Part shown: piece after piece, positions 37,768 through 63,292 of the stretch
How the letters are laid out: the number at the start of each line of letters is the position of its first letter
How positions within the stretch are numbered: the first letter of the stretch is position 1
The notes under the pieces: generated by a model
What the model was told of the DNA's origin: nothing
Databases searched by the model: none
The model's input: the letters and a program-made list of their open reading frames with translations, nothing else
Made by a program: the position numbers and the translations under genes
Assembly (NCBI GenBank): GCA_902605215.1
Contig: CACLBX010000003.1
Span: 4,378 to 68,377 of the forward strand
Origin: an uncultured Pelagibacteraceae bacterium
Lineage (GTDB): Bacteria; Pseudomonadota; Alphaproteobacteria; Pelagibacterales; AG-422-B15
Reading direction: 5' to 3'
DNA: 64,000 bases

Positions 37768-38856
37768 TTAGTAATCCAATGCTCGACAGTCTTGTGAAGA
37801 CCATCCCAAATTTAATTTGTCACCCAGATTAAGCTTAGAATTACTGCTCGCGTTTGGAACTTTTAAAATAAAATCATCGTTACCCAGCAAATTTACACGT
37901 ACTCTTGTGTGATCTCCGTGGTAAATAATTTCTTTGATTTCAGCTTCAAATCGATTTTCAATTTGCTCAGTTGGATTAATATTTACCCTTTCAGGTCTGA
38001 GAGAAATTCTTGATTTTTCACCAGTAGAAGATACTGCTATTGGGTTAGCTATTATTATCTCACCAGTACTAGTCTCAACTTTTGCAGAACCAGAAGCTAG
38101 TTCTTTTACAGTTCCAGTAAAAGTATTGTTTTCGCCAATAAAGCCAGCAACAAAAGAATTAACAGGTGTTTCATATAGTTCATTTGGACCAGAAAGCTGT
38201 TGAACCTTACCGTCATTAAAGACAGCAATTCTGTTTGACATTGTTAATGCTTCACCTTGATCATGGGTGACATATACGACCGTAACACCTAGTGTTTCAT
38301 GAATATGTTTTAATTCGTATTGCATACTCTCTCGCAAGTTTTTGTCTAACGCACCTAAAGGTTCATCCATTAAAACTAATTTAGGATCAAATACTAATGC
38401 TCTTGCAACAGCAACGCGTTGCTGTTGACCACCAGATAGTTGTGCAGGCATTCTGTTTTCAAAGCCTGTTAGTGAAACCATTTTTAAGGTCTTATTTATA
38501 CGTTCTTCAATTTCTGCCTTATCAATTTTTCTAACTTTTAATGGAAAAGCTAAATTTTCAAATACTGATAGGTGAGGAAAAAGTGCGTAGTTTTGAAAAA
38601 CCATGCCAATGCCTCTTTTGTGAGGAGGTATATTATTGATTGGATTTCCATCAAAATAGATCTCTCCATTAGTAGGCGTCTCAAAGCCTGCAAGCATCAT
38701 TAATGTAGTTGTTTTACCTGAACCTGAAGGCCCTAATAAAGTTAAAAACTCCCCTTCAGCAATATCAAGGTCTAGACCTTTTACGACCAGTTCTTTACCA
38801 TCGTAACTTTTGTCAACTTGTTCAAATTTAACGAAATCTGACTTTTCTCCACTCAT
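37768..38856 (-). CDS. ABC transporter ATP-binding protein (PotA-like, with C-terminal TOBE-like domain)
   Basis: Walker A GPSGSGKTT, signature LSGGQQQRVAVARAL, Walker B LVLMDEPLGALD, H-loop VTHDQ. Confidence 0.93.
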   Translation of the reverse strand: MSGEKSDFVKFEQVDKSYDGKELVVKGLDLDIAEGEFLTLLGPSGSGKTTTLMMLAGFETPTNGEIYFDGNPINNIPPHKRGIGMVFQNYALFPHLSVFENLAFPLKVRKIDKAEIEERINKTLKMVSLTGFENRMPAQLSGGQQQRVAVARALVFDPKLVLMDEPLGALDKNLRESMQYELKHIHETLGVTVVYVTHDQGEALTMSNRIAVFNDGKVQQLSGPNELYETPVNSFVAGFIGENNTFTGTVKELASGSAKVETSTGEIIIANPIAVSSTGEKSRISLRPERVNINPTEQIENRFEAEIKEIIYHGDHTRVRVNLLGNDDFILKVPNASSNSKLNLGDKLNLGWSSQDCRALDY

Positions 38857-44467: not shown

Positions 44468-45808
44468 TTAGCAATCAATAATATTTTTTCTTTCCCAATC
44501 TTTTTTATTTTCATCACTAACTTTATTGTGTTCTGCGATTTCCCTTTTTTTAAGTTTTAAGTATTGTGAGACAACTTTTGAGCTTATGGATTTTCTTACA
44601 ACTTCACTGGCTTTAAATTTATTAAGTGACTCTATTAGAGACTGAGGTAACTTTTTAATTCTCTTTAACTTATGTCCTTGTGAATACATATTCACATCTA
44701 CCCTCTTGCCAGGATTTCTTTTATTTTTTATTCCATCCAATCCCATAGCAATCAGCCCAGCTTGCAAGAGATATGGATTAACTGCACCATCGGCGGGTCT
44801 AAATTCTATCCTTCCAGCATCTGGTATTCTGATCATATGGGTTCGGTTATTTCCTGAATAGGTTACAGCAGTAGGTGAGTATGTTGATCCTGAATTAGTT
44901 GTTCTCGCATTCAAACGATCATAACTATTTAATGATGGGTTGAACCAAGCAGAAAATGAATCAACAGATTTCATTATCCCGCCAATAAAGTGGTAGCCCA
45001 TTTTGGACAATCCAAGCTCATTATCCTGATTAAGAAAATGATTTTTTTTCTTTTTTAAATCCCATAAAGATGCATGCGCATGACAACCATTTCCAGTTAA
45101 ATCATCAAAAGGCTTGGGCATAAAAGTAGCCCTTAAGCCGTGTTTCTCAGCAATAGATTTTACCATAAATTTAAAAAAAACATGTCGGTCTGCAGTCGTA
45201 AGTGAGTCAGTGTAGTCCCAATTCATTTCATATTGGCCATTTGCATCTTCGTGATCGTTTTGATAGGGCTTCCACCCAAGCTTGATCATAGAGTCACAAA
45301 TTTCCTTTAAAATATCATAGCGCCTCATCAATGCCGCGACGTCGTAGCAAGGCTTTTGAGCATCGTCCCTTGAATCAGCAACCTCAGTTCCAGCTTCATT
45401 AAGTATGAAAAATTCACATTCTACACCCGTCATCATTTTAAAATTGAGATCTGTCATTTGTCTAATTTGTTTTTTGAGAATGACACGTGGGCATTGATCC
45501 ATAGGCGCATTGTTAATCACCAGATCACTGGCCAACCAACCGACATCAGGTTGCCATGGTAATTGTATGAGACTGTCAGGGTCTGGAACGGCAAACATAT
45601 CTGGGGCTGCAAAATCAAGGTCCAAGTAAGTTGCAAAACCGCCAAATCCAGCACCAGTTTTTTGCATTTCAGAAATAGCGCGGGCTGGCACTAATTTTGC
45701 ACGCTGTATACCAAACAAATCGACAAAACTGATTAAGAAGTATTTGATTTTCTTTTGTTGAGCGATCTTAGCTAAACTGCTTTTCATAATTAGAATTATG
45801 ACTTCCAA
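44468..45808 (-). CDS. Glutamine synthetase family ligase (gamma-glutamyl-amine synthetase type: GmaS/PuuA-like)
   Basis: FVDLFGIQRAKLVP beta-grasp start, GVECEFF, HEDANGQYEMNW, GNGCHAHASLW and NSYDRL. The true start may be ATG 45787. Confidence 0.85.
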   Translation of the reverse strand: MEVIILIMKSSLAKIAQQKKIKYFLISFVDLFGIQRAKLVPARAISEMQKTGAGFGGFATYLDLDFAAPDMFAVPDPDSLIQLPWQPDVGWLASDLVINNAPMDQCPRVILKKQIRQMTDLNFKMMTGVECEFFILNEAGTEVADSRDDAQKPCYDVAALMRRYDILKEICDSMIKLGWKPYQNDHEDANGQYEMNWDYTDSLTTADRHVFFKFMVKSIAEKHGLRATFMPKPFDDLTGNGCHAHASLWDLKKKKNHFLNQDNELGLSKMGYHFIGGIMKSVDSFSAWFNPSLNSYDRLNARTTNSGSTYSPTAVTYSGNNRTHMIRIPDAGRIEFRPADGAVNPYLLQAGLIAMGLDGIKNKRNPGKRVDVNMYSQGHKLKRIKKLPQSLIESLNKFKASEVVRKSISSKVVSQYLKLKKREIAEHNKVSDENKKDWERKNIIDC

Positions 45809-45882: not shown

Positions 45883-46947
45883 ATGGATCCACACTTAGTA
45901 GCAAAAAAAAACAAAGTTATTGATCTCATTAACAATCTAGAAGATGGCAACTTTGCATTGTTGCTCTTAATTCATATCTCTCGGTATCAAAATTTATTTT
46001 TGCATACAGAACCTGATTGGGAAAACAGCCCAAATAATTGGATAACCAAAGACAGACGACTCCAAGATGAGTCTATCGGAGTTCTTTCGTTCATCATTTT
46101 ATATTCTCTCACCAATGCGCATGTGGATGAAAATCTTTTTCCTGAATATAGAAAGCAAATTAAGGCAATGAAAATTGAAGATTTCTTGGATAATAATTTT
46201 TTTATTTCTCCATTCACAAATTTTATTGGAAAAAAAATATCTCTGAAAGTTCTTGAGTCATTTTTTTCTATTCCCCGAGAAAATATAAGACGATATATAA
46301 AGTCGTTGATAGAGGCTGGGTTTATTAGTAAAAACAAAAAGTATGGTTACCTTGTAAACATGGAGGCGTATGTTCAATACATATTTACAGACTCTCTTAG
46401 TAAAATTATGAAGTCACTCATGAGAACATTCGATGATATTATCGTTAATCTTGAAGAAAAGTATCAACTAAAATTAAATTTAAAACCAATCTCAGTTATA
46501 AATTTAGAAAAGACAAAACCCGATGTATGGAATCGAATTAGATTGCCCATGTATCACTTTTGGGTAAGAGTTCTAACACTAGAAGGCAATGATCACCTTT
46601 TAAGCCCCAATGATCGAGTTGTCTTATCTGCATCGATCTATTTTAGGAAACGTAAAGGAATATTAAATTTCACTAAAATTTCTGAGCTTTACGAAAATGA
46701 TTATCTCTTACCAACAAATATTTCATCAATTGCAGAGGCATCTAAAATGCCACGAGAAACTGTGAGGAGGTGTAGTAATAAATTAATAAAGATGAGACAT
46801 TTTGAAAAAAAAGGACGTCAACTGTATAGAATTAATTACGCTCATAAAGATGGAGAAATAGAAAATTTTATCAAGAATAAGAAAGTTACAACTCGCGATA
46901 TGATGAATTTTTATTTTAGAATTTACGATGATTTAGTTCAGATTTAA
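45883..46947 (+). CDS. Hypothetical protein with two winged-helix-like segments (possible regulator)
   Basis: 354 aa. IPRENIRRYIKSLIEAGFISK and ASKMPRETVRRCSNKLIKMRHFEKKGR look like recognition helices of MarR/Rrf2-like wHTH domains. Confidence 0.45.
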   Translation: MDPHLVAKKNKVIDLINNLEDGNFALLLLIHISRYQNLFLHTEPDWENSPNNWITKDRRLQDESIGVLSFIILYSLTNAHVDENLFPEYRKQIKAMKIEDFLDNNFFISPFTNFIGKKISLKVLESFFSIPRENIRRYIKSLIEAGFISKNKKYGYLVNMEAYVQYIFTDSLSKIMKSLMRTFDDIIVNLEEKYQLKLNLKPISVINLEKTKPDVWNRIRLPMYHFWVRVLTLEGNDHLLSPNDRVVLSASIYFRKRKGILNFTKISELYENDYLLPTNISSIAEASKMPRETVRRCSNKLIKMRHFEKKGRQLYRINYAHKDGEIENFIKNKKVTTRDMMNFYFRIYDDLVQI

Positions 46948-49721
46948 ATTGAGCACATTAAAATAATTTCTTCATTACAGACTAACTCAGCTTCAACAAT
47001 GGAACTATTTTGAGCACTTAATTGTGTATCAAGGGCTTCAAGCATAGATTTTGCTTCATTCATTGGTACTGGGCCTACAATAATGGAATAGTCATTTTTA
47101 TCTAATTTATCGACATTAATATCATATTTGAGAAATCTACTGTCAAATCCCATTACATCGTAAATATAATTCATAAAACTGAATGCAGAATTGCCACGTG
47201 TATACGATCCAATTTTTATATAAACATATTCAGCGTCACTGGTATCAATTGTTAATTCAGTTTCTTCAATATCGCTTGCTTGGGCACTAAATGCATTTGA
47301 TACAACTTCTGTAGGTTCTTCGATGAGTTGAGCGAGATCTTCTAATGCTTGGGTTGCTTCTTCAGCTAATTTATTTTCTAATTCAGTTGTGTTGTTGAGT
47401 TCTGTAAGTAAATCTCTCGCAGCATTGGCTTCCTCAACAAGGCTATTTTCATCAACAGCATTTAAAATTTTCTTTTTTGGTAAAACGCTAACCAATTCTA
47501 ATGTTTCTTCAGTATTATCAATTGTAGTTTCATCATTCGGCAATAGAGATGTATCTACCTGGTTCTCAATTGCATCAACCTCTGGAATCGCTTCTTCATC
47601 ACTATCGATTGCAGCTTCGTCGAGTATGTTTTGGGCTTTTTTAAGAGTACTATCAACAGAGTCTAACAAGTCATTCAGGCTATCTGCATCATTAATAATC
47701 ATTTCATTGGACACAGCATATTCATCCAAATCAATTTTTGGTTCATCAACAACTTCAGTAACTTCCGAAACTTCTTCATTAGTTTCCATGATTTCCTCAA
47801 CGGTCTCAATGCCTTGTTCTATGCTAATCTTATCCTCTTCAACTTGATTGAAACCTAACTGAATAAGTTCTTCTCTTGCGTTTTTACTTTCTTGGGCAAG
47901 GAATTCACCCTCATCCAAAAATTGAAGTGTGAAGTTATCCTCAACAGATACCAGTGCATTTGCAACAGAAACTTTTAATTTTATTCCAGATACGTCACTA
48001 GGAGGATTGCCCACAAATGACAAATCAGAAGTTAAAAAAGCAAGCCATCTTGGTAAAGCAGTTCCATCCTCTTGTGATGCTTCAAAACGCAGCTTGCCTG
48101 GTCCACTGATATTGAACGTATTGTCAGAAATTTGGAATTTATTACTGGTTTGTTGCGTATTGATTGGATCATTTATAATTAGAAGCATCGGATCCTGGTC
48201 ACTAATAGGAACATTTACCGCTGCTTGATAAACTTCTCCCCATTCAGAAAGATTAGTTTCAATATTTTTGCTCACATCCTCAATCGATAAATTCTGATGG
48301 TTTTCAGGCAGAATATCTTTTCCAAGTGATGCGTAAATTTGTCCAATACTGTGCTGCATTTCAGAGAAGGCTAAATCGCGTCGAAGTTCGGCAACCAATA
48401 AACTTGCTTCTTCCCGAATAACTTCAAGTTCGCCGAAGCGCGAGACTTTTTGTGCATTTTGTACTTGCTTACTGATCCTTTGAGCCACATCCAGGTATCT
48501 CTGCGCAGTATCATATTCTTCTATTGCTAAGGCATAATTCATATTTGAAAGATGGACTTGAGACAAAACTGTCATAGCAATAGCTAGATGACGTTCTGCA
48601 ATTAAATCTTTACTGGCTTTAGAAGATTTTTTTACAGCCCCTAATGAAAACACGTTAAAAAGGTTAGCTCCAATAGATGCGCCGTATTCTGTTGAGTCTT
48701 GGTTCAACAAATATTGATTGCTTGAATAACCGTAAGTCGCATTAAATTTTATACTTGGAATCAGCCCTAAAATAGCGGCTCTAGTATCCTTGCCAGTAAT
48801 CCTTTTTTGATAGCGACTTTCCATTAACTCAGGTCTTGAAACAAGTGCGATTTCTTCCATCTTTTCAATGTTCATATTTATATTAGTGAGGTAAGCATCA
48901 TCTCTTGACAGGCTAAACTTTTGACCAGGCAGTAATCCCATGAGTATCGCAAGTTCATTTTTGGAATTTATTAATGCTCGTTGTTGAGTTTGCAGCGTTC
49001 TTTGAACATCAAGTAATTCTTTTTGATAAAGTAATGAATCCATAGGTGCAGATATGAGAAGTTCTTCAATATACTTCGAGTCTGCAAGAGCTGTTTCAAC
49101 TCTCTCAAGAAGTGGATTTAATTTTTTTAAAAGATTTTCTGACGCCTGTGCTTTCCAGTAAGCGCGAATGATATCACGAGTAATGTTTTGTGTTGCTTTT
49201 CTCTCAAGTTCTTTAGCAATTAGATAACGATCCGCTTGTTGACCTGCTCGAATGTAGGACAAGCCAAAATCAAGAGCGTTCCATGTGAACTCAATATTTC
49301 TAGTTCTTAGACCTCTATCACGAGAAACAGTATAAGACTCAGTTCCATCAAGATCTGATGGTGGCTCACTATCATTTTCAACTGTAATACTCGTTGATGG
49401 CTGTAATTCATTAAATTCAGAGTAACCCGCATTGAGGGCAATATCTGGAAGCATATCAAAACGTTGAAGATCACTTTGCCTCTGCGCCAATGCAGACTCC
49501 ATTACGCTGATACGTAAGTCACGGTTGTTTTTAATGGCAATAGCAATTGCTGTATGGAGGTCTATGTTTTCTAGAGGAGCCTCAACTGTGAGCGACGATA
49601 AATCTTTTTGAATACTTATACTTAACTTTTCTGCGTCGATAACATTGGGTGTCCGAGCGCAGGCGCTAAGTGCAATCAATAGGAAGAGAGCTATTATTTT
49701 TGTAGTAATTTTTCTCATCAA
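46944..49721 (-). CDS. TolC/OEP-family outer-membrane lipoprotein fused to an Ig-like (dystroglycan/cadherin-type) domain, a long acidic linker and a SPOR-like C-terminal domain
   Basis: Lipobox LIALSAC (Cys21). About 430 aa of two-fold OEP-type helix/strand repeats. ALPRWLAFLTSDLSFVGNPP..IKLKVSV segment near 47930-48150. D/E-rich region 47236-47930. C-terminal YVYIKIGSY..YSIIVGPVPMNEAKSMLEAL. Confidence 0.8.
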   Translation of the reverse strand: MMRKITTKIIALFLLIALSACARTPNVIDAEKLSISIQKDLSSLTVEAPLENIDLHTAIAIAIKNNRDLRISVMESALAQRQSDLQRFDMLPDIALNAGYSEFNELQPSTSITVENDSEPPSDLDGTESYTVSRDRGLRTRNIEFTWNALDFGLSYIRAGQQADRYLIAKELERKATQNITRDIIRAYWKAQASENLLKKLNPLLERVETALADSKYIEELLISAPMDSLLYQKELLDVQRTLQTQQRALINSKNELAILMGLLPGQKFSLSRDDAYLTNINMNIEKMEEIALVSRPELMESRYQKRITGKDTRAAILGLIPSIKFNATYGYSSNQYLLNQDSTEYGASIGANLFNVFSLGAVKKSSKASKDLIAERHLAIAMTVLSQVHLSNMNYALAIEEYDTAQRYLDVAQRISKQVQNAQKVSRFGELEVIREEASLLVAELRRDLAFSEMQHSIGQIYASLGKDILPENHQNLSIEDVSKNIETNLSEWGEVYQAAVNVPISDQDPMLLIINDPINTQQTSNKFQISDNTFNISGPGKLRFEASQEDGTALPRWLAFLTSDLSFVGNPPSDVSGIKLKVSVANALVSVEDNFTLQFLDEGEFLAQESKNAREELIQLGFNQVEEDKISIEQGIETVEEIMETNEEVSEVTEVVDEPKIDLDEYAVSNEMIINDADSLNDLLDSVDSTLKKAQNILDEAAIDSDEEAIPEVDAIENQVDTSLLPNDETTIDNTEETLELVSVLPKKKILNAVDENSLVEEANAARDLLTELNNTTELENKLAEEATQALEDLAQLIEEPTEVVSNAFSAQASDIEETELTIDTSDAEYVYIKIGSYTRGNSAFSFMNYIYDVMGFDSRFLKYDINVDKLDKNDYSIIVGPVPMNEAKSMLEALDTQLSAQNSSIVEAELVCNEEIILMCSI

Positions 49722-49902: not shown

Positions 49903-52900
49903 ATGAGCAATAAACTTATTCAGGCTTTGGAACCCCGTCTCATGCTGGACGGTGCAGCAGTAGCAACGGCAATTGATGCGGTTGATGATTTAGCTCAGTT
50001 TCAAAAATCCGAGAGTGATAAGTCATTTAAAGCAGATCACTTCAAAGTTGATAAAGATACGAAACTCCCTTTCGTAAATGTAGACGCATCAGCTCAAAAT
50101 GCAAAATCAAGACAGATTGTATTTATCGATAGCACAGTAGAAGATATTGAAACGCTGATTAATAGTTTTGATAAAAATACTGAGGTGCATGTCATACAAA
50201 GTGATCAAGACGGATTTGTTACCATGCAAAATATTTTATCATCTCAAGAAAATATAGATGCGGTTCACGTCATTGGTCACGGTAGTGTTGGACAGATTGC
50301 ATTCGGTACAGCTGTATTAAACAGCGATACATTAAATGCTTATGAAAATATTCTTCAAGAGATTGGAACAAGTCTTTCAGTAAATGGAGATATTTTATTT
50401 TATGGTTGCAACGTAGCCGCAGATCAAAGTGGTGAGATCTTAATCAAACAAATTGCAGACATCACGGATGCTGATGTAGCGGCATCAGATGATATTACTG
50501 GTAAAGGCGGTGATTGGGACTTAGAGAAACATACAGGCATTATTGAAACTGAAAATGTTTCAGTTGTAGGTTACCAATATGCTCTAAGTAATGGCGTAAC
50601 AGCAACCCAAAATGCTGTTGAATTACATACTTCAGGTATGAATTTCATGGCAGGCGGCGGAACCTATAAAAATAACACTGGAGGTCAAACAGACTCAGGT
50701 GGAACCAGATACATCGTCACGCTTGAAAGAGGGAATGTAACAACTGGAGATACTTTAGATTTTGATTACGATGTAGCTTCAGCAACTCACGACCCTGATA
50801 CTCAAGGTGCTGTTAATGTTTATATGGTCTTCCTAAATGACTATGTAAACAGAAGAGCCGAAGATGATAGAGGTATTATAACTTTTGATAATGAAATTCT
50901 TGGTATTTTTACCACCCCAGAGAACACGATAGCAAAATCTGGATATGACATGAGTGATGGTATCTATCCTCTAACAACCAATTCGAAAAAAGTGCAGATG
51001 AGGGATTTAGAGTATCTGGATCCTCCTGCTACTCCTCCTGGTACTATGGGTAGCCAAGATGCCTTTACTGTAACAGGATCCAATAAAGTTTTAACCATGG
51101 CTACAGACAATGGACTAAAAGGAGACTTTGTCAGGGTGGTTACCAGAGTAGCTTCTGATCCCGTAGTGGGCAATAATGATTCTGGTTATATTAATGAAAA
51201 CTTAACATTAGGTGTCTCTAATGGCGCAAGCGCAAATGATAGCACACCAGATACATCAGGAGAACACACAGGTGATGTTTTGCTTAATGACACTGGTGGT
51301 GATGGATCTGATTTAATTGTGAGTGCAATAAATGGAGGGTCCCTCGGATCGCCAGTTGATGGCACTTATGGTCAATTAACACTCTTTTCAAATGGTTCAT
51401 ACAGTTACTCAGCTAATAAAGATGCTGCGAATGAATTAGATGCAAGTGATACAGAAACTGATACCTTTACTTATACGGTTTCTGATGGAAGCGATACTGC
51501 TACTGCAACAATCACAATTACTGTTGCAGGTGTGAATGATGCGCCCGTTGGAGCAGCTGATACAGGCTACATCAAAGAAGATGGAACGTTGTCTGTATCT
51601 AATGGTGGCTCTGCTGTTACAGGAACAGATAGCAACAATAATAATGAAAGTGGTGATACTACGGGTGATGTTTTGCTCAATGATACTGACCCAGATGCGA
51701 GTGCAAGCTTAGTAGTATCAGCAGTGCAAGGACAGGCTAGTAATGTTGATTCAAATGTTACAGGCACTTACGGTACATTAAATTTAGATGCAAATGGCTC
51801 ATATACCTATATAGCCAATCAAAGTGCTGCAGACGGACTCGCTGCTGGAGCAACGGCAACAGACACATTTTCTTATACTGTTAGTGACGGCACTGCAACA
51901 AGCACAGTAAATTTGGTCATCACGGTTATAGGGGTAGGGCCTGAAGCGGTCGCTGATACAGCTTCAGTTAATGAAAATGTTTTGCTTAATGCCAACAATG
52001 CATCGTCTACCGGTTTACTGGCTAATGATGACGACAATGCTGCTTATGATAGTGAGAGCTTAGCTGTTACGAACGTTAGTTCTAACTCTACAGGAAACAG
52101 TGGTAGTGCTACACAGGGAGTTCTCGGTACGTATGGTACGCTCACTGTGGCAGCTGATGGTACTTATACATATACGCCAAATACAGCAGCAGCTGAAGCA
52201 TTGGATGCAAATGACACTGAAACAGATGTCTTCACTTACACAGTAAAAGATGATGATGATAAAAATTCAAGTACTGCAACGCTTACAATCACAGTAACAG
52301 GTGTTGACGACAACCCGGTTGCTGTCAGTGATACAGGTTATATCAATGAGGATGGAACACTGGCTGTAGCAGATGGTGGCTCTGCTGTTACAGGAACAGA
52401 TAGCAACAATAATAATGAAAGCGGTGATACCACAGGCGATGTTTTACTCAATGACACTGACGCAGATGCGAGTGCAACTCTTGTTGTTTCTGCAATACAA
52501 GGTGGATCTTTAGGATCAGGTGTGAATGGAACCTATGGTACCCTCACTTTATATTCAACCGGTAGATATACATATGTTGCAGATAAGAGTGGCGCGGATG
52601 GACTTGCAGCAGATGCAGTTCAAACTGATGTCTTTACATATACTGTAAGTGATGGAGCTGGCGATACGAGTAACGCTACTCTTACAATTACAGTAAAGGG
52701 TATTGGTCCCCAAGGCGTAGCGGACACAGCGTCTGTAGCTGAAAATGCAACGGTAACCAACAACAATGCTGCCACAAACGGAGTGCTCGCAAACGATGAT
52801 GATAACGCATCATTTGACCAAGAAAGTCTTGCTGTAACGGCAATAACAGGTGCATCAGCAGGAACAGTTGATGGTGACACAACAGGAACTCATGGAACAC

Positions 52901-55900
52901 TTTCAATGAATGAAGATGGTACTTATTCTTATGCGGCGACTAATGATGCTCTTGATCCTAATGAGCAAGTTACAGATATATTTACTTACACTGTAAAAGA
53001 CGATGCGAATAAAAATGCAAGTACTGCGACATTAACAATAACAGTAACTGGAGCAAATGACCCAATTACTGCTGTTGCTGACACGGATGCTGTAAATGCT
53101 GGATCTACAATTTCTCGAAGTGAAACTGATACAGAAGAACTTGATCATGACGATACTGACCCTGATGGTGATGATGTATCAGGCAGCTTTACTATTACTA
53201 ATATCAGACATGGTTCTGATGATTATAACCCTGGTCAAGAAATTACGACATCAAAAGGTAGATTAACAGTCGATGCAAATGGTTCTTATACTTATGTAGC
53301 TGATCAAAGCGGTTCAACAGGCTTAGGAAACGGTGTTCAAGCAACTGATGTCTTCACTTATACAGTAAGAGATCACAGTGGAGGTGATACAGACACCGCA
53401 ACACTTACGATCACAATTACAGGAACTAACAATACAGCACCAGTTGCCAATACCGATGCAGGTTATATTCTGGAGGATGGTCGTCTTGAAGTAACAGATG
53501 GTGCGACGGCAAATGATGCTACTCCGGATGCAACAGGAGAACATACAGGGGATGTCTTATTAGATGATACTGATGCAAACAGTGACACACTTACTGTTTC
53601 AGCAATATCAGGAGGATCAGTGGGCTCTAATGCAAATGGGACTTACGGAACATTAGTAATTCAAAGTAATGGTAGCTATGTCTATACAGCGGATAAGACT
53701 GCAGCAGATGCATTGGATGCTGATGATGTGGTTACTGATCAATTTATCTATACAATTAGTGATGGCAATGGAGGAACTGCGACTTCAACACTTACCTTCA
53801 CCGTAAAAGGGATTGATGATGATCCTGTTGGTGTAGCCGATACAGGAGCAGTTGATGAAGACGCTCAACTTCAAGTAAATGCTGTAAGTGGAGTATTATC
53901 AAATGATACTGATGCTGATGCGAGTTCAAGTCTGTCCGTGACCACAGTTAGTTCCAATAACACAAGTCAAAGTGGAAGTGCTGGTTCAGAAATTACAGGC
54001 GAATTCGGGTCCCTCACACTAGATTCAGATGGAAAATATACATACACAGCCAATACTGCAGCTGCTGATAATTTAGCCCATAATGCAACGGCCACTGACG
54101 TGTTTACCTATACCGTCAGCGATGGCGCTGGAACGACCAGCAATACTACTCTTACAATTACAGTTACAGGGAAAGGCCCTGTTGGTTCTGCTGATTCTGC
54201 TGCAGTAAATGAAAATGTGTTACTCAGCAAGGATGAAGCAAGTGGTGTTCTAACAAATGATACTGGTGGAGATCAAGAAAGTCTTGCAGTTACTAATATT
54301 TCCTCAAATGATACCAGCGCAACAGGTACTGCTGGTCAGGGAGTGTTAGGAACCTACGGGACTTTAACTATGGCTGCAGATGGAAGTTATACATATACGC
54401 CTAATACAGCCGCCGCAGAGGCTCTAGATGGTGGTGACTCGGTTTCAGAAAAGTTTACCTATACAGTAAAAGATGATGAGGATAAAAATTCTTCAACCGC
54501 TGAACTTACAATTAATATTACAGGTGTTAATGATGCCATCGTTGCAGTTGATGATACGGATGCTGTTGATGAGGATGGTAGAGTAGACAGGTTAATTAGT
54601 GATGATCAAGAACTTGATCATGACGATACAGATGTGGATACGGATGATGTAAGCGGAAGTCTCACGATTACTGATATAAGAACAGGTCCTAAAGATGGAA
54701 CCGGAACTGATGGCACGGTAGGTGTGGCGCTAACAGGAGAATATGGAACACTGACAGTGAATGATGATGGATCATACACTTATATCGCTGATCAAGATAA
54801 ATCAGATCAACTTCCCACAGGTCAAACAGGAACAGATACATTTACCTACACTGTGAGTGATGGTACTGAAACTTCGACCGCACAACTGACTTTCAAAGTC
54901 ACTGGTATCAATGATAACGATCCAGTTGCTGTAGACGACACTGATACTGTAAATAGAGATGCATCCATAGATAGAACAAATGGATCTACATTTGATCTAG
55001 CTATTGATGATACAGATGCAGACTCGGATACATTAACCATTACTGAAATAAGAAAAGGCAACACTAAAGGTGGAGGTGATGCTGGAACTATAGGACAACC
55101 ACTAGTTGGTGAATACGGAACATTAACGTTACAAGCAGACGGCAGTTATAAATATGCTGCTGATCAAGACTCGATCAATAACCTTGGTCGTGGACAAAGT
55201 GTAATTGAGTATTTTAATTATACCGTATCTGATGGCTCAAGAACTACAACAGGACTACTTTCAATTACTGTAAATGGTATTAGTGATCCGCCTGTTCCAG
55301 TGGATGATACACTAGACATTGACGCTGGTGCACAAACAGAAAAAGGTGCAAATCAAGGGGTATTGATAAATGATACTGACCCTGATGGAGATCCTTTATC
55401 CGTGGAAAGCATTAGAACTGGTCAAGAAAATAAAACGGGGACATCAGGTACCATTGGAACAGCCTTACCAGGAACATATGGCGATTTAACTATGAATTCT
55501 GACGGAAGCTACATCTATCAAGCTAACAATGCAAAAGCACTAAATCCTGGTGAAACTGCTACAGAATACTTTACTTATACAGCAACCGACGGTGAGTCCT
55601 CAGTAGAAGCTCAAATTGCTATTACCGTGACAGGTCAAAATGATCCACCTGTAGCTTTATACCCTGTTCGAGATCCAAATGTAGTTACAGGTGAAAAATT
55701 TATTATCAGGCACAAACAAATTTTTGATGATCCAGACACAGGTATTTATGACATCGCAGAATACAAAATTATTGATCCTGAAGATGGTACAGAAGTAAGT
55801 CTTCCTGATGGACTAAGACTAAAACAAAATAAAATTCATGGATCCATTAGTACACCTGGGACATACAGTATTACAATCAGAGCAATTGATGGAGCAGGCC

Positions 55901-57027
55901 TCTATGCTGATCATACTTTTACAATCACAGTTAAGCCTGCATCAGGGTATATCGCTGAAAAGGATACTATTGATGAAGAAGCATCATCTACTTATGAAAC
56001 GGTTGTGATCAAACCAAAGAAAGATTATTTATCTGCAATTAAAGAAACAGTTAATGAGGGGTCCTTAGGTATCACTGATGAAGGCTTTACGTTGGATACA
56101 GTATCAATCGCTGATACCGCATCTCTTTCAAAACCTCTAAAATTCAATGGCGGTTTGCGATTGATGGATGCCGTTGCAAATGAAGTATCAGGCAATGAAG
56201 AGTCTGATTTATCAGTTGGTGTTAAATTGAATGATGATAATCAGAAAAATGTTGAACTGTATTCAGGAAAACTCTCTGACGGGAAAGCCTTACCCGAGTG
56301 GATACAAGTCAATCCTGAAACAGGCGAAACAACAGCCAATATGCCTGAAGGTGTGCAAGAAGTTGAAGTACAGCTTGTTGCCTTGGACAAAGACGGTAAC
56401 ACAAGAGATATCAACATTGTTCTGGATAAAGCAAAAATTAAAAACGACCAAGAATTTACTCGAGGTAACGTTGGTCAAACACAGGTTGTGGTTGATAATG
56501 ATGCCAATGTAAATCTAATTCGTAAAAGTGATGGCAAGACTGATCAAGTAGCATCAAACAATTTAAATGCTGAAACGGACTTCCTAGGCACCATGAAGCT
56601 TAGCGATGTCCAAATGGATGCGGGCAAATATACTCTGGATATGATCGATGACAATCAATCAAATGTAAAAATGTATAAAGCCGAGATGAAAGATGGGGGC
56701 TCTTTACCTGAATGGATTACTATTGATTCAGATACAGGATCAATCTCGCTAGACCCATCAATAGCTCGAACAGGTTCTGCAGCCTCAGTATTTTTAACGG
56801 ACAGTCTTCAAGTGCTTGAGTTTAAAATTATTGCTGAGGATGAAGATGGCAAAGAGAGAATAATCGAAGTTGAAATTAATCTTGATGAAATCGCTACGCC
56901 ATCTGAAACTGAAGAGCAAGCTGAGGAAACTGATGAAGTTTCGTTTATTCCTCTTGATGAACAACTTAAGGTACAGTCTCAGAAAATAGATAATTATGGC
57001 GAAAAAATTATTAGTCTTGTAAGCTAA
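49903..57027 (+). CDS. Giant (2374 aa) surface adhesin-like protein: N-terminal LEPRLMLDGAA motif + DUF4347, 12 VCBS/cadherin-like repeats, C-terminal Ig-like (He_PIG/dystroglycan-type) domains
   Basis: No hydrophobic signal peptide. DUF4347-like block QIVFIDSTVED..VHVIGHGSVGQIAFG..ILFYGCNVA (about 50110-50550). Twelve units ending (F/Y)TYTVSDG/KDD...ATLTITVTG(V/I)(N/D)D. SLPDGL..GSISTPGTYSITIRAIDGAG and two LPEWI..D..TG domains at the C-terminus. Confidence 0.9.
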   Translation: MSNKLIQALEPRLMLDGAAVATAIDAVDDLAQFQKSESDKSFKADHFKVDKDTKLPFVNVDASAQNAKSRQIVFIDSTVEDIETLINSFDKNTEVHVIQSDQDGFVTMQNILSSQENIDAVHVIGHGSVGQIAFGTAVLNSDTLNAYENILQEIGTSLSVNGDILFYGCNVAADQSGEILIKQIADITDADVAASDDITGKGGDWDLEKHTGIIETENVSVVGYQYALSNGVTATQNAVELHTSGMNFMAGGGTYKNNTGGQTDSGGTRYIVTLERGNVTTGDTLDFDYDVASATHDPDTQGAVNVYMVFLNDYVNRRAEDDRGIITFDNEILGIFTTPENTIAKSGYDMSDGIYPLTTNSKKVQMRDLEYLDPPATPPGTMGSQDAFTVTGSNKVLTMATDNGLKGDFVRVVTRVASDPVVGNNDSGYINENLTLGVSNGASANDSTPDTSGEHTGDVLLNDTGGDGSDLIVSAINGGSLGSPVDGTYGQLTLFSNGSYSYSANKDAANELDASDTETDTFTYTVSDGSDTATATITITVAGVNDAPVGAADTGYIKEDGTLSVSNGGSAVTGTDSNNNNESGDTTGDVLLNDTDPDASASLVVSAVQGQASNVDSNVTGTYGTLNLDANGSYTYIANQSAADGLAAGATATDTFSYTVSDGTATSTVNLVITVIGVGPEAVADTASVNENVLLNANNASSTGLLANDDDNAAYDSESLAVTNVSSNSTGNSGSATQGVLGTYGTLTVAADGTYTYTPNTAAAEALDANDTETDVFTYTVKDDDDKNSSTATLTITVTGVDDNPVAVSDTGYINEDGTLAVADGGSAVTGTDSNNNNESGDTTGDVLLNDTDADASATLVVSAIQGGSLGSGVNGTYGTLTLYSTGRYTYVADKSGADGLAADAVQTDVFTYTVSDGAGDTSNATLTITVKGIGPQGVADTASVAENATVTNNNAATNGVLANDDDNASFDQESLAVTAITGASAGTVDGDTTGTHGTLSMNEDGTYSYAATNDALDPNEQVTDIFTYTVKDDANKNASTATLTITVTGANDPITAVADTDAVNAGSTISRSETDTEELDHDDTDPDGDDVSGSFTITNIRHGSDDYNPGQEITTSKGRLTVDANGSYTYVADQSGSTGLGNGVQATDVFTYTVRDHSGGDTDTATLTITITGTNNTAPVANTDAGYILEDGRLEVTDGATANDATPDATGEHTGDVLLDDTDANSDTLTVSAISGGSVGSNANGTYGTLVIQSNGSYVYTADKTAADALDADDVVTDQFIYTISDGNGGTATSTLTFTVKGIDDDPVGVADTGAVDEDAQLQVNAVSGVLSNDTDADASSSLSVTTVSSNNTSQSGSAGSEITGEFGSLTLDSDGKYTYTANTAAADNLAHNATATDVFTYTVSDGAGTTSNTTLTITVTGKGPVGSADSAAVNENVLLSKDEASGVLTNDTGGDQESLAVTNISSNDTSATGTAGQGVLGTYGTLTMAADGSYTYTPNTAAAEALDGGDSVSEKFTYTVKDDEDKNSSTAELTINITGVNDAIVAVDDTDAVDEDGRVDRLISDDQELDHDDTDVDTDDVSGSLTITDIRTGPKDGTGTDGTVGVALTGEYGTLTVNDDGSYTYIADQDKSDQLPTGQTGTDTFTYTVSDGTETSTAQLTFKVTGINDNDPVAVDDTDTVNRDASIDRTNGSTFDLAIDDTDADSDTLTITEIRKGNTKGGGDAGTIGQPLVGEYGTLTLQADGSYKYAADQDSINNLGRGQSVIEYFNYTVSDGSRTTTGLLSITVNGISDPPVPVDDTLDIDAGAQTEKGANQGVLINDTDPDGDPLSVESIRTGQENKTGTSGTIGTALPGTYGDLTMNSDGSYIYQANNAKALNPGETATEYFTYTATDGESSVEAQIAITVTGQNDPPVALYPVRDPNVVTGEKFIIRHKQIFDDPDTGIYDIAEYKIIDPEDGTEVSLPDGLRLKQNKIHGSISTPGTYSITIRAIDGAGLYADHTFTITVKPASGYIAEKDTIDEEASSTYETVVIKPKKDYLSAIKETVNEGSLGITDEGFTLDTVSIADTASLSKPLKFNGGLRLMDAVANEVSGNEESDLSVGVKLNDDNQKNVELYSGKLSDGKALPEWIQVNPETGETTANMPEGVQEVEVQLVALDKDGNTRDINIVLDKAKIKNDQEFTRGNVGQTQVVVDNDANVNLIRKSDGKTDQVASNNLNAETDFLGTMKLSDVQMDAGKYTLDMIDDNQSNVKMYKAEMKDGGSLPEWITIDSDTGSISLDPSIARTGSAASVFLTDSLQVLEFKIIAEDEDGKERIIEVEINLDEIATPSETEEQAEETDEVSFIPLDEQLKVQSQKIDNYGEKIISLVS
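51150..55650 (+). repeat. Tandem array of about 12 coding repeats (about 100-130 codons each) inside the adhesin gene, with an about 257-codon higher-order period
   Basis: Recurrent FTYTV(S/K)D(G/D) .. TLTITVTG.(N/D)D unit boundaries. A 47-nt tract at 51604-51650 is identical to 52375-52421 (offset 771 nt). Confidence 0.85.
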
Positions 57028-57039
57028 TTCTGTAAATAA

Positions 57040-57759
57040 ATGAATAAAGTTAAAACATCGTTAGCAGCGTTTTGCTTTCTTTTTATATCTTTTGGGGCAC
57101 TAGCTGAAGAAAGAACAACACGTATTTTAGTTACTGCAACTGAAGAGGCGACTTTATCAAGTGAAATTTCAGCAAAAATAATTTCTATTCCTGTAAAAGC
57201 AGGAAATAACTTTAGTAAATCAGATATTTTAATTGAATTTGACTGTTCCTTTTTTGAAGCTCAAAAAGATGTCGTACAAGCAGAACTAGATAGTGCCAGA
57301 GTAACTCTAAAAAGTAACCAAGAGCTTGCTGCGATGAGATCTATTGGAGAGTACGAAGTTCAACTATCTCGAATAGCAGTTGATCGAGCACAATCAGAAT
57401 TAAATATTGCAGAACTCAACACTGATCGTTGTATTATTCAAGCGCCCTATGACGGAGTCATGTCCAAAGTCTTTGTAAATGAGTACGAAAGTATTGAAAG
57501 GCAACAGCCATTGATTGAAATTATTGGTTCAGGCACATTAGAGGCAAAACTTATGATATCAAGTAAATGGCTATCATGGTTATCTGAAGGATATCCTCTA
57601 AGTATAGTTATTGATGAGAATGGCTTAGAGTATAGTGCACAAATACATTCTTTAGGTGCAGATATAGATCCGGTAAGTCAGACGATTGATGCTACCGCAC
57701 AATTTGATAAAAATTATGAGACATTACTTCCAGGAATGAGTGGGACAGCAACGTTTTGA
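57040..57759 (+). CDS. Short periplasmic HlyD/MFP-type adaptor (secreted, 239 aa)
   Basis: Signal peptide ..FISFGALA/EE. Barrel-sandwich segments ISAKIISIPVKAGNNFSKSDILIEF and IIQAPYDGVMSKVFVNEYE flank a short coiled coil. Confidence 0.75.
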   Translation: MNKVKTSLAAFCFLFISFGALAEERTTRILVTATEEATLSSEISAKIISIPVKAGNNFSKSDILIEFDCSFFEAQKDVVQAELDSARVTLKSNQELAAMRSIGEYEVQLSRIAVDRAQSELNIAELNTDRCIIQAPYDGVMSKVFVNEYESIERQQPLIEIIGSGTLEAKLMISSKWLSWLSEGYPLSIVIDENGLEYSAQIHSLGADIDPVSQTIDATAQFDKNYETLLPGMSGTATF

Positions 57760-59099
57760 ATGATAATTCTTCAATAAAAATTGCACGACTAATTACACTT
57801 GAAAAAAAGTTTCGTAACGCTGAAAGTGAAACAGAACTTGGTTTTATTTGTGCTAACGAATTACGGAGTATAGTTGACTATAATTTCTTATTTATTCTCA
57901 ACAGATCAAGCATAAACCGACTTAAAGTGAATACTATTTCTGATTTATCAGTCATTGATAGAACAGCTCCAACCGTTACCTTTATTGAGGGATTGCTCAA
58001 TAAGAAAGGAATGATCAAAAGTGATGAAGTATCTGCAATTAGTCTTCAAAGCCTTGATTTAGATAAAGTAAATCTAAATATCCCTGAAAATTTTCCAAAT
58101 CATTTAGTCTTTGTTCCTTTGTCTTCACGAATAGAAAAAAATATTGGTTACTTAGTTCTTGTAAGAACAGAACCAGTTACAAGTTCAGAAAAAGATTTAT
58201 TATTACACATCTCTGAAAGCTTTAGCCATGCGCTCACTGCTTTTGGCTCAAAAAAAACGGTTTTAACAAGTATCAGTCGTATATTTACAGGGTGGGTAAA
58301 GTGGCTAGTGATTGCATCCATAACTGTGGTGATGTTCTTTCCTATTAGCATGTCAGCTTTGGCGCCTGTAGAGGTGGTTGCAAAAGATCCAACTATAGTT
58401 ACATCACCTGTGAACGGTGTTGTTGAAAAAGTTTTAATTAAGACCAACGAAAATGTAAAACCAGGTACAGAACTAGTTAAACTGGACGATTTAAATTTTA
58501 AAAATCAGTATGAAATTGCACTTCAGAAACTTGAAGTAGCTGAAGCCGAGCTGTTAAGAGTTAAGCAGTCATCATTTTCAAATGAAGATGATAAAGCACG
58601 CCTGGTTGAACTTTCAACTGAAGTAGGTTTAAGGAAAAAAGAAGCCACCTACGCAGAAGAACAATTGAAATACTCAATCATTTCTGCTGAGCGAGAGGGT
58701 ATAGCGGTGGTTGAAGACTTTACTGATTGGCAAGGGAGACCTGTTACCATTGGCGAAAAAATATTAACTATAGCTGATCCTCAACGCATTGAATTTCAAA
58801 TCTTTTTACCCACTAAAGATTCTCTTTTGATTAAAAAAGAAGCCAGAGTAAAAGTGTTTTTAGATAGTGACCCTCTTAATTCTCTTGAAGGAGAAGTCTT
58901 GCGTACTTCTTATAAGCCTGCTCTTACGGCTGAGAATATTTTAGCATATCAGATTTTTGCAAAATTAGATGAAAACCAAGGAGAAGTTCCAAGAATAGGT
59001 TTACGAGGTACAGCAAAAATTTACGGAGAAAAAACAAGTATTTTTTACTACATATTCCGTGTTCCTATAAATCTTACGAGACAATTTTTAGGTTTTTAG
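57756..59099 (+). CDS. HlyD-family adaptor with an about 170-aa cytoplasmic N-terminal domain and a single TM
   Basis: TM WLVIASITVVMFFPISMSAL, then IVTSPVNGVVEKVLIKTNENVKPGTELVKLDD, a coiled coil, and IISAEREGIAVV. 4-nt overlap upstream and no gap downstream. Confidence 0.75.
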   Translation: MNDNSSIKIARLITLEKKFRNAESETELGFICANELRSIVDYNFLFILNRSSINRLKVNTISDLSVIDRTAPTVTFIEGLLNKKGMIKSDEVSAISLQSLDLDKVNLNIPENFPNHLVFVPLSSRIEKNIGYLVLVRTEPVTSSEKDLLLHISESFSHALTAFGSKKTVLTSISRIFTGWVKWLVIASITVVMFFPISMSALAPVEVVAKDPTIVTSPVNGVVEKVLIKTNENVKPGTELVKLDDLNFKNQYEIALQKLEVAEAELLRVKQSSFSNEDDKARLVELSTEVGLRKKEATYAEEQLKYSIISAEREGIAVVEDFTDWQGRPVTIGEKILTIADPQRIEFQIFLPTKDSLLIKKEARVKVFLDSDPLNSLEGEVLRTSYKPALTAENILAYQIFAKLDENQGEVPRIGLRGTAKIYGEKTSIFYYIFRVPINLTRQFLGF

Positions 59100-63254: not shown

Positions 63255-63292
63255 TGTCTTATATATTACCGATATTTTTTTCTTCAATCTTG

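Follow-up and report, generated by a model that had tools for sequence, protein, structure and literature searches.

A TolC-family channel lipoprotein of SAR11 bacteria with its own Ig-like, acidic and SPOR-derived tail, encoded beside a giant adhesin

In the textbook picture, TolC-family outer-membrane factors (OMFs) are stand-alone ducts, and the anchoring of envelope machines to peptidoglycan is left to separate accessories, such as SiiA of the giant-adhesin type I secretion system (T1SS) on Salmonella pathogenicity island 4 (SPI4), TsaP of type IV pili, TagL of type VI secretion systems (T6SS) and MotB. Members of SAR11, the most abundant bacteria of the ocean, are streamlined and supposedly free-living. 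Here, we have analyzed a channel gene, and the export gene cluster that lies next to it, in a stretch of 64,000 nucleotides (referred to below as the window) from an uncultured Pelagibacteraceae bacterium of this group (contig CACLBX010000003.1 of assembly GCA_902605215.1). On the basis of sequence comparisons, this gene encodes a SAR11 channel lipoprotein with a tail of its own: behind the TolC/OEP core come an Ig-like domain, a spacer rich in acidic residues and a diverged domain of the SPOR type (Table 1).

The protein resembles several described systems in part. Like TolC/OprM (NodT-type) outer-membrane factors, it has two OEP repeats and, as in OprM and NodT, an N-terminal lipobox; unlike them, it carries a C-terminal tail of ~450 amino acids and scores far under the cut-offs of the NodT and T1SS-TolC families. 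As in LapE/LapA- or SiiC/SiiE-type systems, the channel is encoded beside HlyD-family adaptors and a giant repetitive adhesin. In contrast with TolC/OprM systems, however, the cluster is without an ATP-binding cassette (ABC), resistance-nodulation-division (RND) or major facilitator superfamily (MFS) transporter gene and has a PqqD-M50 protease-HlyD fusion instead, and, in contrast with type I secretion, the substrate bears an N-terminal LEPR-type motif and not a C-terminal RTX signal. With SiiA, TsaP, TagL and MotB the system would share the coupling of an envelope-spanning machine to the sacculus, which SiiA provides for giant-adhesin secretion. Those anchors are separate proteins, OmpA/MotB-like or LysM and mostly located in the inner membrane, whereas in the window the outer-membrane channel itself bears a fused SPOR-type domain. 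A precedent for an outer-membrane lipoprotein with a C-terminal SPOR domain is RlpA (PMC6895207). As in RlpA, FtsN, DamX and DedD, a terminal SPOR-type domain is joined to a membrane anchor through a long linker of low complexity; unlike in these four proteins, the anchor is a TolC-type channel.

The channel gene is read from the minus strand, and the plus-strand reading of the same interval is full of stop codons. An initial annotation, made from the letters of the window alone, had described a lipoprotein of 925 amino acids with its lipobox cysteine at position 21. Both the open reading frame (ORF) and the lipobox are real, but an ATG at 49718, one codon past the TTG, is the likely start; it agrees with the starts of the orthologs and gives a protein of 924 amino acids with the lipobox L-S-A-C20 (this numbering is used below). 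C20 is invariant in the orthologue alignment, and the only other cysteines in the whole protein are C914 and C922. More than 100 full-length homologs (910–978 amino acids, 61–91% identity) with the same domain order were found in a collection of 5.8 billion proteins; the few whose source was named came from Pelagibacteraceae or Pelagibacterales, that is, SAR11. In addition, a scan with one genome per species yielded a set of 80 genomic loci from single-cell and metagenome-assembled genomes, and 33 complete loci on such contigs showed the layout of OEP core, Ig-like domain, acidic linker and terminal domain. Thus, orthologs carry the same extension, and its recurrence goes far past what chance would give. 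Among these window-type loci, identity to the window protein was 81–96% in the OEP core and 67–95% in the Ig-like domain. A promoter and terminator scan of the region gave nothing that exceeded the shuffled background.

The assignment of the first half of the protein to the TolC family was confirmed by Pfam PF02321 (OEP), which matched residues about 54–470 as two repeats (120.2 bits against a cut-off of 22, E = 1.2e-34). A full-length AlphaFold2 (AF2) model, for which an alignment of 18 sequences was used, reached a predicted local distance difference test score (pLDDT) of 44, which was too poor for domain packing; its pattern of long helices was the one feature consistent with the OMF architecture of a trimeric 12-strand beta-barrel and an alpha-barrel. 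Despite the lipobox, the NCBIfam NodT model TIGR01845 gave 39.1 bits against a cut-off of 210, and the NCBIfam T1SS-TolC model TIGR01844 gave 31.7 bits against a cut-off of 225. The TolC cores encoded by the corresponding clusters of Azospirillum, Kosakonia and Escherichia coli likewise scored far under both cut-offs, and a hidden Markov model (HMM) built from the SAR11 core matched these proteins at 1e-113 to 1e-90. On these profile scores, the core belongs to a distinct TolC subfamily that is dedicated to this gene cluster. The conserved connector behind the core is probably the C-terminal segment of the equatorial domain, as judged from TolC-family topology.

The next two parts of the tail were essentially as first annotated. 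The LPxW(L/I) signature that had been read as Ig-type proved to be LPRWL at residues 555–559, within a match to Pfam PF05345 (He_PIG); against a cut-off of 24, this match scored 25.7 bits when the full protein was scanned and 30.5 bits when the domain was scanned alone. He_PIG was matched by 11 of 14 diverse orthologous Ig-like domains. The low-confidence full-length model showed beta-strands across residues 499–602 and did not confirm an Ig beta-sandwich; a search of PDB with the domain profile gave one weak match, to the Ig domain of KIT (E = 0.46). In the D/E-rich linker, residues 610–825 contain 9.7% D and 19% E and have a net charge of -51. Across the 33 loci, this spacer is 210–293 amino acids long with a net charge of -39 to -69, and three helical segments split by disordered stretches were predicted in it, again with low confidence. 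When the entire 454-amino-acid extension was searched against PDB by phmmer, spurious weak matches to Csa3 and AcrIIC4 and nothing else were obtained. Among the window-type loci, identity to the window protein was 55–99% in the terminal domain where it was 29–79% in the spacer, so that the terminal domain is under selection. The spacer has kept its length and charge in spite of its low identity, and the terminal domain has kept its sequence; selection thus acts on composition in the former and on sequence in the latter.

For the C-terminus, the motifs on which a SPOR-like pattern had been proposed are present, and the strongest support for a relation to SPOR domains was comparative, from orthologs in sister clades (other Pelagibacterales, and single-cell genomes labeled as uncultured Alphaproteobacteria). 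About 32 orthologous loci in these clades encode an OEP-Ig protein of about 800–822 amino acids that ends in a Pfam SPOR domain (21.8–24 bits, and 27.5 for P0120; cut-off 21). The profile of these tails matched RlpA SPOR structures at 7e-4 and SPOR structures of CwlC and DedD more weakly. When the window clade was aligned with the sister-clade SPOR domains by hhalign, 65 columns fell in register (E = 6.6e-4, probability 27%), with YIKIGSY paired with FIQIGAF and YSIIVGP paired with YRILVGP. Because the sister-clade orthologs end in a Pfam SPOR domain and the profile-profile alignment is in register, we concluded that the terminal domain, as judged by these alignments, descends from a SPOR domain. 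With SPOR proteins it has in common a GP motif that follows strand 3 and, where RlpA has F274, an aromatic residue. A predicted beta-alpha-beta-beta-alpha core would fit the SPOR fold except for the final strand, which lies in a low-confidence region, and RlpA SPOR is among the top Foldseek matches of the prediction. It differs from them in having Lys for Gln, Ser and Ile for two Arg, an extra Cys-pair hairpin and no Pfam match. The 25-residue extension with the Cys pair is absent from the sister-clade SPOR tails and specific to the window clade; C914 and C922 are nearly invariant in the orthologue alignment and invariant in seven window-type C-terminal sequences, and a disulfide between them is possible.

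Four tail variants could be distinguished on this TolC subfamily in Pelagibacterales, and the Ig-like domain is present in all of them. Variant A, the window type (33 loci), combines the Ig-like domain with a long acidic spacer and the diverged SPOR-like domain. In variant B (about 32 loci), a spacer of 96–135 amino acids and a canonical SPOR domain follow the Ig-like domain, and the same divergent adhesin is encoded upstream, together with the adaptor genes wherever the sampled DNA reaches them. Variant C (5 loci; L059, L061, L062, L064 and L069) has the Ig-like domain only (611–618 amino acids). Variant D (6 loci, including Candidatus Pelagibacter) has the Ig-like domain and a K/E-rich helical tail of 214–273 amino acids without SPOR; the tail of these loci (L073, L075, L076 and L078–L080) is probably helical and reminiscent of TolA domain II. 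Outside SAR11, the Kosakonia cluster TolC has almost no tail, that of A. argentinense has a Pro/Ala/Lys-rich low-complexity tail and that of the E. coli IncHI1B plasmids (L083 9778–11697, 639 amino acids) has a C-terminal domain of ~150 amino acids, which was compared with the SAR11 Ig-domain HMM only. In the cluster TolC proteins of Azospirillum, Kosakonia and E. coli, this HMM had no match in the C-terminal tail.

SPOR tails were also found on the Azospirillum side of the subfamily. Among the matches listed for the Azospirillum protein, a precomputed SPOR domain was present in 33 of 120 homologs. The combination of OEP and a C-terminal SPOR domain (26–32 bits) was confirmed in five of these 33, and the TolC-SPOR arrangement was confirmed inside the cluster of Azospirillum sp. 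TSA2s. These proteins are annotated in RefSeq as plain 'TolC family protein', the SPOR domain being visible to Pfam. They agree with the window protein in TolC subfamily, in the five genes of the cluster and in ending with a linker and a SPOR-type tail; they differ from it in that their linkers are shorter and not acidic, their SPOR domain is canonical and an Ig-like domain is missing. With the SAR11 SPOR HMMs, the Azospirillum SPOR domains were not detected, and the tail may have been inherited once or gained twice. In either case, the pairing of this channel with a wall-binding type of tail recurs. A tethered channel had been regarded as unusual in the initial annotation, and so it is, but with the tails of Azospirillum and the four Pelagibacterales variants it is not unique. 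A peptidoglycan-type tail on this channel is thus a recurrent theme in Alphaproteobacteria, both marine and soil, and the elaborations specific to SAR11 are the Ig-like domain, a highly acidic spacer and the remodelling of the SPOR domain.

TolC-family proteins have their C-terminus in the equatorial domain, which encircles the alpha-barrel in the periplasm, and the tails that OMFs carry there have a bearing on adaptor pairing (review PMC8277102). By analogy with this topology, the whole tail of ~450 amino acids would be periplasmic and not on the cell surface, and contact with a surface-exposed part of the adhesin would thereby be ruled out. A docking platform for the adhesin, as suggested early on, is thus unlikely at the cell surface. 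A surface-exposed tail was considered as well and rejected as unlikely on OMF topology.

A functional link between the channel and the divergently encoded adhesin, which had also been suggested, is strongly supported by synteny across SAR11 clades and other Proteobacteria. All SAR11 groups have the divergent adhesin gene next to that of the channel, and its three downstream neighbours are present wherever the fetched SAR11 DNA runs beyond the adhesin gene. The N-terminal ALEPRLMLDGA of the window adhesin scored 16.3 bits with the NCBIfam LEPR-XLL model (cut-off 17), and He_PIG-type domains with LPEW motifs lie in its C-terminal region. No Sec signal was found in this protein of 2374 amino acids, nor were RTX repeats near its C-terminus; a single GGxGxD match occurs at residue 465. 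No gene for an ABC transporter or another ATPase is present within the cluster, either here or in the Azospirillum, Kosakonia and E. coli versions, and the sole ABC-type ATPase ORF in the window (37768–38856) is unrelated to the cluster. The features of classical type I secretion were therefore absent, as there is no adjacent ABC gene and the substrate has no C-terminal RTX repeats or secretion signal; an unlinked ABC or other energising transporter could be encoded elsewhere. On the conserved synteny, it is somewhat probable that the channel is the dedicated outer-membrane exit of a conserved giant-adhesin export cluster in SAR11. It should be noted that two LPEW He_PIG-like domains of the adhesin (56290–56700, residues about 2130–2270) are of the same type as the Ig-like domain of the channel, and that the latter matched this C-terminal region of the adhesin by pairwise BLASTP with E = 0.001. 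Such likeness could reflect homotypic recognition or merely a common domain family.

With regard to the tail, we are inclined, with moderate confidence, to regard it as a periplasmic leash by which the exit channel, along with the adhesin threaded through it, is coupled to the sacculus. The TolC-type core would serve as the exit duct, and its C-terminus would run on from the equatorial belt into the periplasmic tail. The terminal SPOR-derived domain, capped by the Cys-pair hairpin, would grip the peptidoglycan, with the flexible acidic spacer serving as the leash. The export machine, and the 2374-residue adhesin inside it, would in this way gain a mechanical link to the cell wall and might also be positioned, and the position of the channel might be biased toward denuded glycans at division sites. 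The Ig-like domain, which all Pelagibacterales orthologs have regardless of what else their tail contains, most likely contacts the unusual periplasmic adaptors of the cluster or the passing substrate.

Several results weigh against such a tether. First, neither the window protein nor any window-type C-terminal domain was matched by Pfam SPOR PF05036 (cut-off 21 bits), even at E = 10. A PDB search with the window-type C-terminal profile gave FtsN SPOR as its sole match (E = 0.91), and when 1.8 billion cluster representatives were searched exhaustively with HMMER and the C-terminal domain profile, five matches were obtained, apparently the family itself or its fragments, and no bridge to canonical SPOR domains. 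Second, structural support for the fold was weak. AF2 of the last 100 residues (pLDDT 62.6) gave a SPOR-compatible beta-alpha-(alpha)-beta-beta-alpha core and then a low-confidence hairpin with both cysteines, and the final strand of the SPOR fold fell in a region of pLDDT <50. Foldseek placed the RlpA SPOR structures 6i09 and 6i05 at ranks 2 and 9 (probability 0.99, template modelling score 0.62–0.69, E = 0.04–0.08), and its other matches were generic ferredoxin-like folds. Third, the residues that contact glycan have partly been replaced. In RlpA, these are the highly conserved Q270, the backbone of A273, F274 (which stacks) and, as a basic patch, R302, R309 and R311 (PMC6895207). In the alignment, they correspond to K835 (Q270), S838 (A273), Y839 (F274), S878 (R309) and I880 (R311). 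S838 and Y839 are conservative replacements, but the glycan-binding Gln and two of the three Arg of the basic patch are lost in the window clade; both the Gln and the Arg equivalent to R309 are kept in the sister clades. Binding to denuded peptidoglycan is thus not to be assumed. On the other hand, Y833, K835, G837 and Y839, the equivalents of the glycan face of strand 1, are invariant within the window clade, which suggests that some ligand surface has been maintained, and peptidoglycan binding by the diverged domain is plausible on this evidence. Finally, variants C and D are without SPOR, so that a wall tether is dispensable for the system.

The replaced residues would also fit an alternative in which the SPOR-derived domain of the window clade has lost glycan binding and been re-used for protein-protein contact, so that the tail docks or gates the adaptors or holds a periplasmic end of the adhesin. 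As the tail would be periplasmic, the last of these is the only workable form of a retention platform. The Cys-pair hairpin, which this clade gained and true SPOR tails do not have, points in the same direction, as do a spacer that is twice as long and far more acidic than in the canonical-SPOR orthologs, the He_PIG/LPxW type that the channel shares with the C-terminal domains of the adhesin, and the part that OMF tails play in adaptor pairing. However, the domain clearly descends from SPOR, its glycan face has kept the aromatic residue, the Gly and the Ser/Ala (Y839, G837 and S838), and the Lys could still pair with the lactyl carboxylate of N-acetylmuramic acid (MurNAc). Moreover, adaptor and adhesin co-vary with all tail types, so that no partner is tied to the window-type tail. 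We consider this alternative unlikely, though by no means negligible.

Even less probable is that the tail is chiefly for localization and not for bearing load, in which case the SPOR-type domain would direct the channel to peptidoglycan at the septum or the new pole and thus place the adhesin at one pole, comparable with FtsN, DamX, DedD and RlpA. Canonical SPOR domains bind peptide-free glycan strands that are enriched at the septum (PMC6895207). The presence of such domains on the sister-clade and Azospirillum orthologs would be in line with targeting. Peptide-free glycan strands are enriched at division sites and new poles. However, the outer-membrane beta-barrel restricts lateral mobility, and the diverged residues of the window clade speak against targeting. 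Localization is also not exclusive of tethering and would be compatible with either a leash or a re-purposed domain. That a TolC gene was joined to a gene downstream of it through an assembly error or a frameshift had to be considered at the outset because the OMF is unusually long. Nothing was found in favor of this, and it is ruled out for practical purposes by the comparative data, as the ORF is continuous, the domain order recurs in the database proteins and in independent contigs, and the sister clades have equivalent fusions, all of which indicates that the channel gene is a real conserved fusion.

The gene order of the cluster recurs in a 934-kb plasmid of Azospirillum argentinense, a plasmid of Azospirillum sp. 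TSA2s, a Kosakonia plasmid and IncHI1B plasmids of E. coli. In these non-SAR11 versions, a giant DUF4347/Ig-like protein is followed by the TolC-family protein, an adaptor of ~260 amino acids, an HlyD protein of ~450 amino acids and a PqqD-M50-HlyD protein of ~700 amino acids. The adaptor with the signal peptide ranges from about 240 to 290 amino acids across clusters, and homologs of the 701-amino-acid fusion were found in 81 plasmid records, 62 of which were full-length. The N-terminal motif LEPR(L/I/F/M)M(L/F)DGA of the substrate (window 49903–49960, residues 1–19) is nearly invariant in all SAR11 groups, in the Azospirillum DUF4347 protein (MALEPRFMFDAAGA) and in the Kosakonia Ig-like protein (SLEPRMLFDGA). 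This motif, which is not a Sec signal, may be the element that is recognized by the PqqD-like domain of the M50 fusion. Searches of the literature that was available found nothing on the five-gene cluster, on LEPR-XLL or DUF4347 substrates or on an M50/site-2 protease-HlyD fusion, and no description of a TolC-SPOR fusion, of TolC fused to a peptidoglycan-binding domain or of Pelagibacter TolC/VCBS proteins. Genes for a 'tail fiber protein' of ~225 amino acids (Pfam phage tail collar) were also observed at L081 1–1853 and L082 14131–16238; phage tail collar genes flank the cluster in Azospirillum and Kosakonia and do not flank it in SAR11.

A wider reading, which we put forward tentatively because we regard it as rather doubtful, is that the tailed channel forms the outer-membrane part of an uncharacterised secretion route for giant surface proteins that has no dedicated ATPase. 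The PqqD-like domain would recognize the N-terminal ALEPRxMxDGA leader, which the M50 intramembrane protease of the fusion would cleave, and the substrate would then cross a cage of three HlyD-type proteins to the dedicated TolC, which in Alphaproteobacteria would itself be leashed to peptidoglycan by the SPOR-type tail. If this were true, SAR11 would keep an investment of ~14 kb across clades despite streamlining, and attachment or cell-surface architecture would matter to these bacteria; finding a conserved adhesin-export apparatus in such streamlined cells leads one to ask to what these cells attach. With an Ig-like module and a peptidoglycan-type tether on the duct itself, an envelope-spanning exporter would be coupled to the wall in a different way. 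The natural variants, namely a canonical SPOR, a diverged SPOR, no tail and a K/E-rich helical tail, make the tether idea testable. Our data also point to a five-gene cluster that is widespread and has no ATPase gene, and whose giant substrates share a conserved N-terminal motif.

Table 1. Features of the channel gene and the adhesin-export cluster (window coordinates unless a locus is named; residues counted from the ATG)
Feature	Position	Strand	Details
Channel ORF	46944–49721	minus	925 codons from TTG at 49721; stop codon 46944–46946
Signal peptide with lipobox	49659–49718	minus	residues 1–20; LIALSA-C20; from translation, hydrophobic segment residues 3–21
TolC/OEP outer-membrane-factor core	48309–49658	minus	residues 21–470; Pfam OEP
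Conserved connector	48189–48308	minus	residues 471–510; W493, Y497, P504, Q508 and P510 conserved in alignments
He_PIG-type Ig-like domain	47904–48188	minus	residues 511–605; Pfam match residues 515–599
Acidic fast-evolving spacer	47241–47903	minus	residues 606–826, about 220 amino acids; 29% D+E, net charge about -51
Diverged SPOR-like domain	47022–47240	minus	residues 827–899; beta-alpha-beta-beta-alpha; YIKIGSY, YSIIVGP
Clade-specific C-terminal extension	46947–47021	minus	residues 900–924; C914, C922; predicted beta-hairpin
Divergent adhesin-like substrate	49903–57027	plus	2374 amino acids; N-terminal ALEPRLMLDGA, DUF4347, 12 cadherin-like/VCBS repeats
Periplasmic adaptor-like protein	57040–57759	plus	239 amino acids; HlyD_3/RND_mfp; Sec signal peptide
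HlyD-family protein	57756–59099	plus	447 amino acids; cytoplasmic N-domain of ~175 amino acids, one transmembrane helix, periplasmic HlyD part
PqqD-M50-HlyD fusion	59100–61205	plus	701 amino acids; PqqD-like N-domain, M50 (site-2-type) intramembrane metalloprotease, HlyD-like periplasmic domain
Five-gene cluster, other loci	L081 3259–17127; L082 1283–14097; L083 1–16073; L084 1–14160		compare window 49903–61205 (plus)

The surroundings of the channel gene provided some additional observations. A gene for a protein of 354 amino acids (45883–46947, plus strand) is convergent with the channel gene, and its last four bases (TTAA) overlap the 3' end of the channel ORF. It stands beside the channel in window-type loci only (55–93% identity), and its product, which has two weak sub-threshold winged-helix matches, may be a local regulator. 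The flanking genes encode a type III glutamine synthetase (44468–45808, minus strand; TIGR03105, 600 bits), which is syntenic with the channel across the window-type loci, and a prolyl oligopeptidase of family S9 (61212–63287, minus strand). The local GC content is about 36–37% in window-type loci, compared with about 30% in loci of the Candidatus Pelagibacter type.

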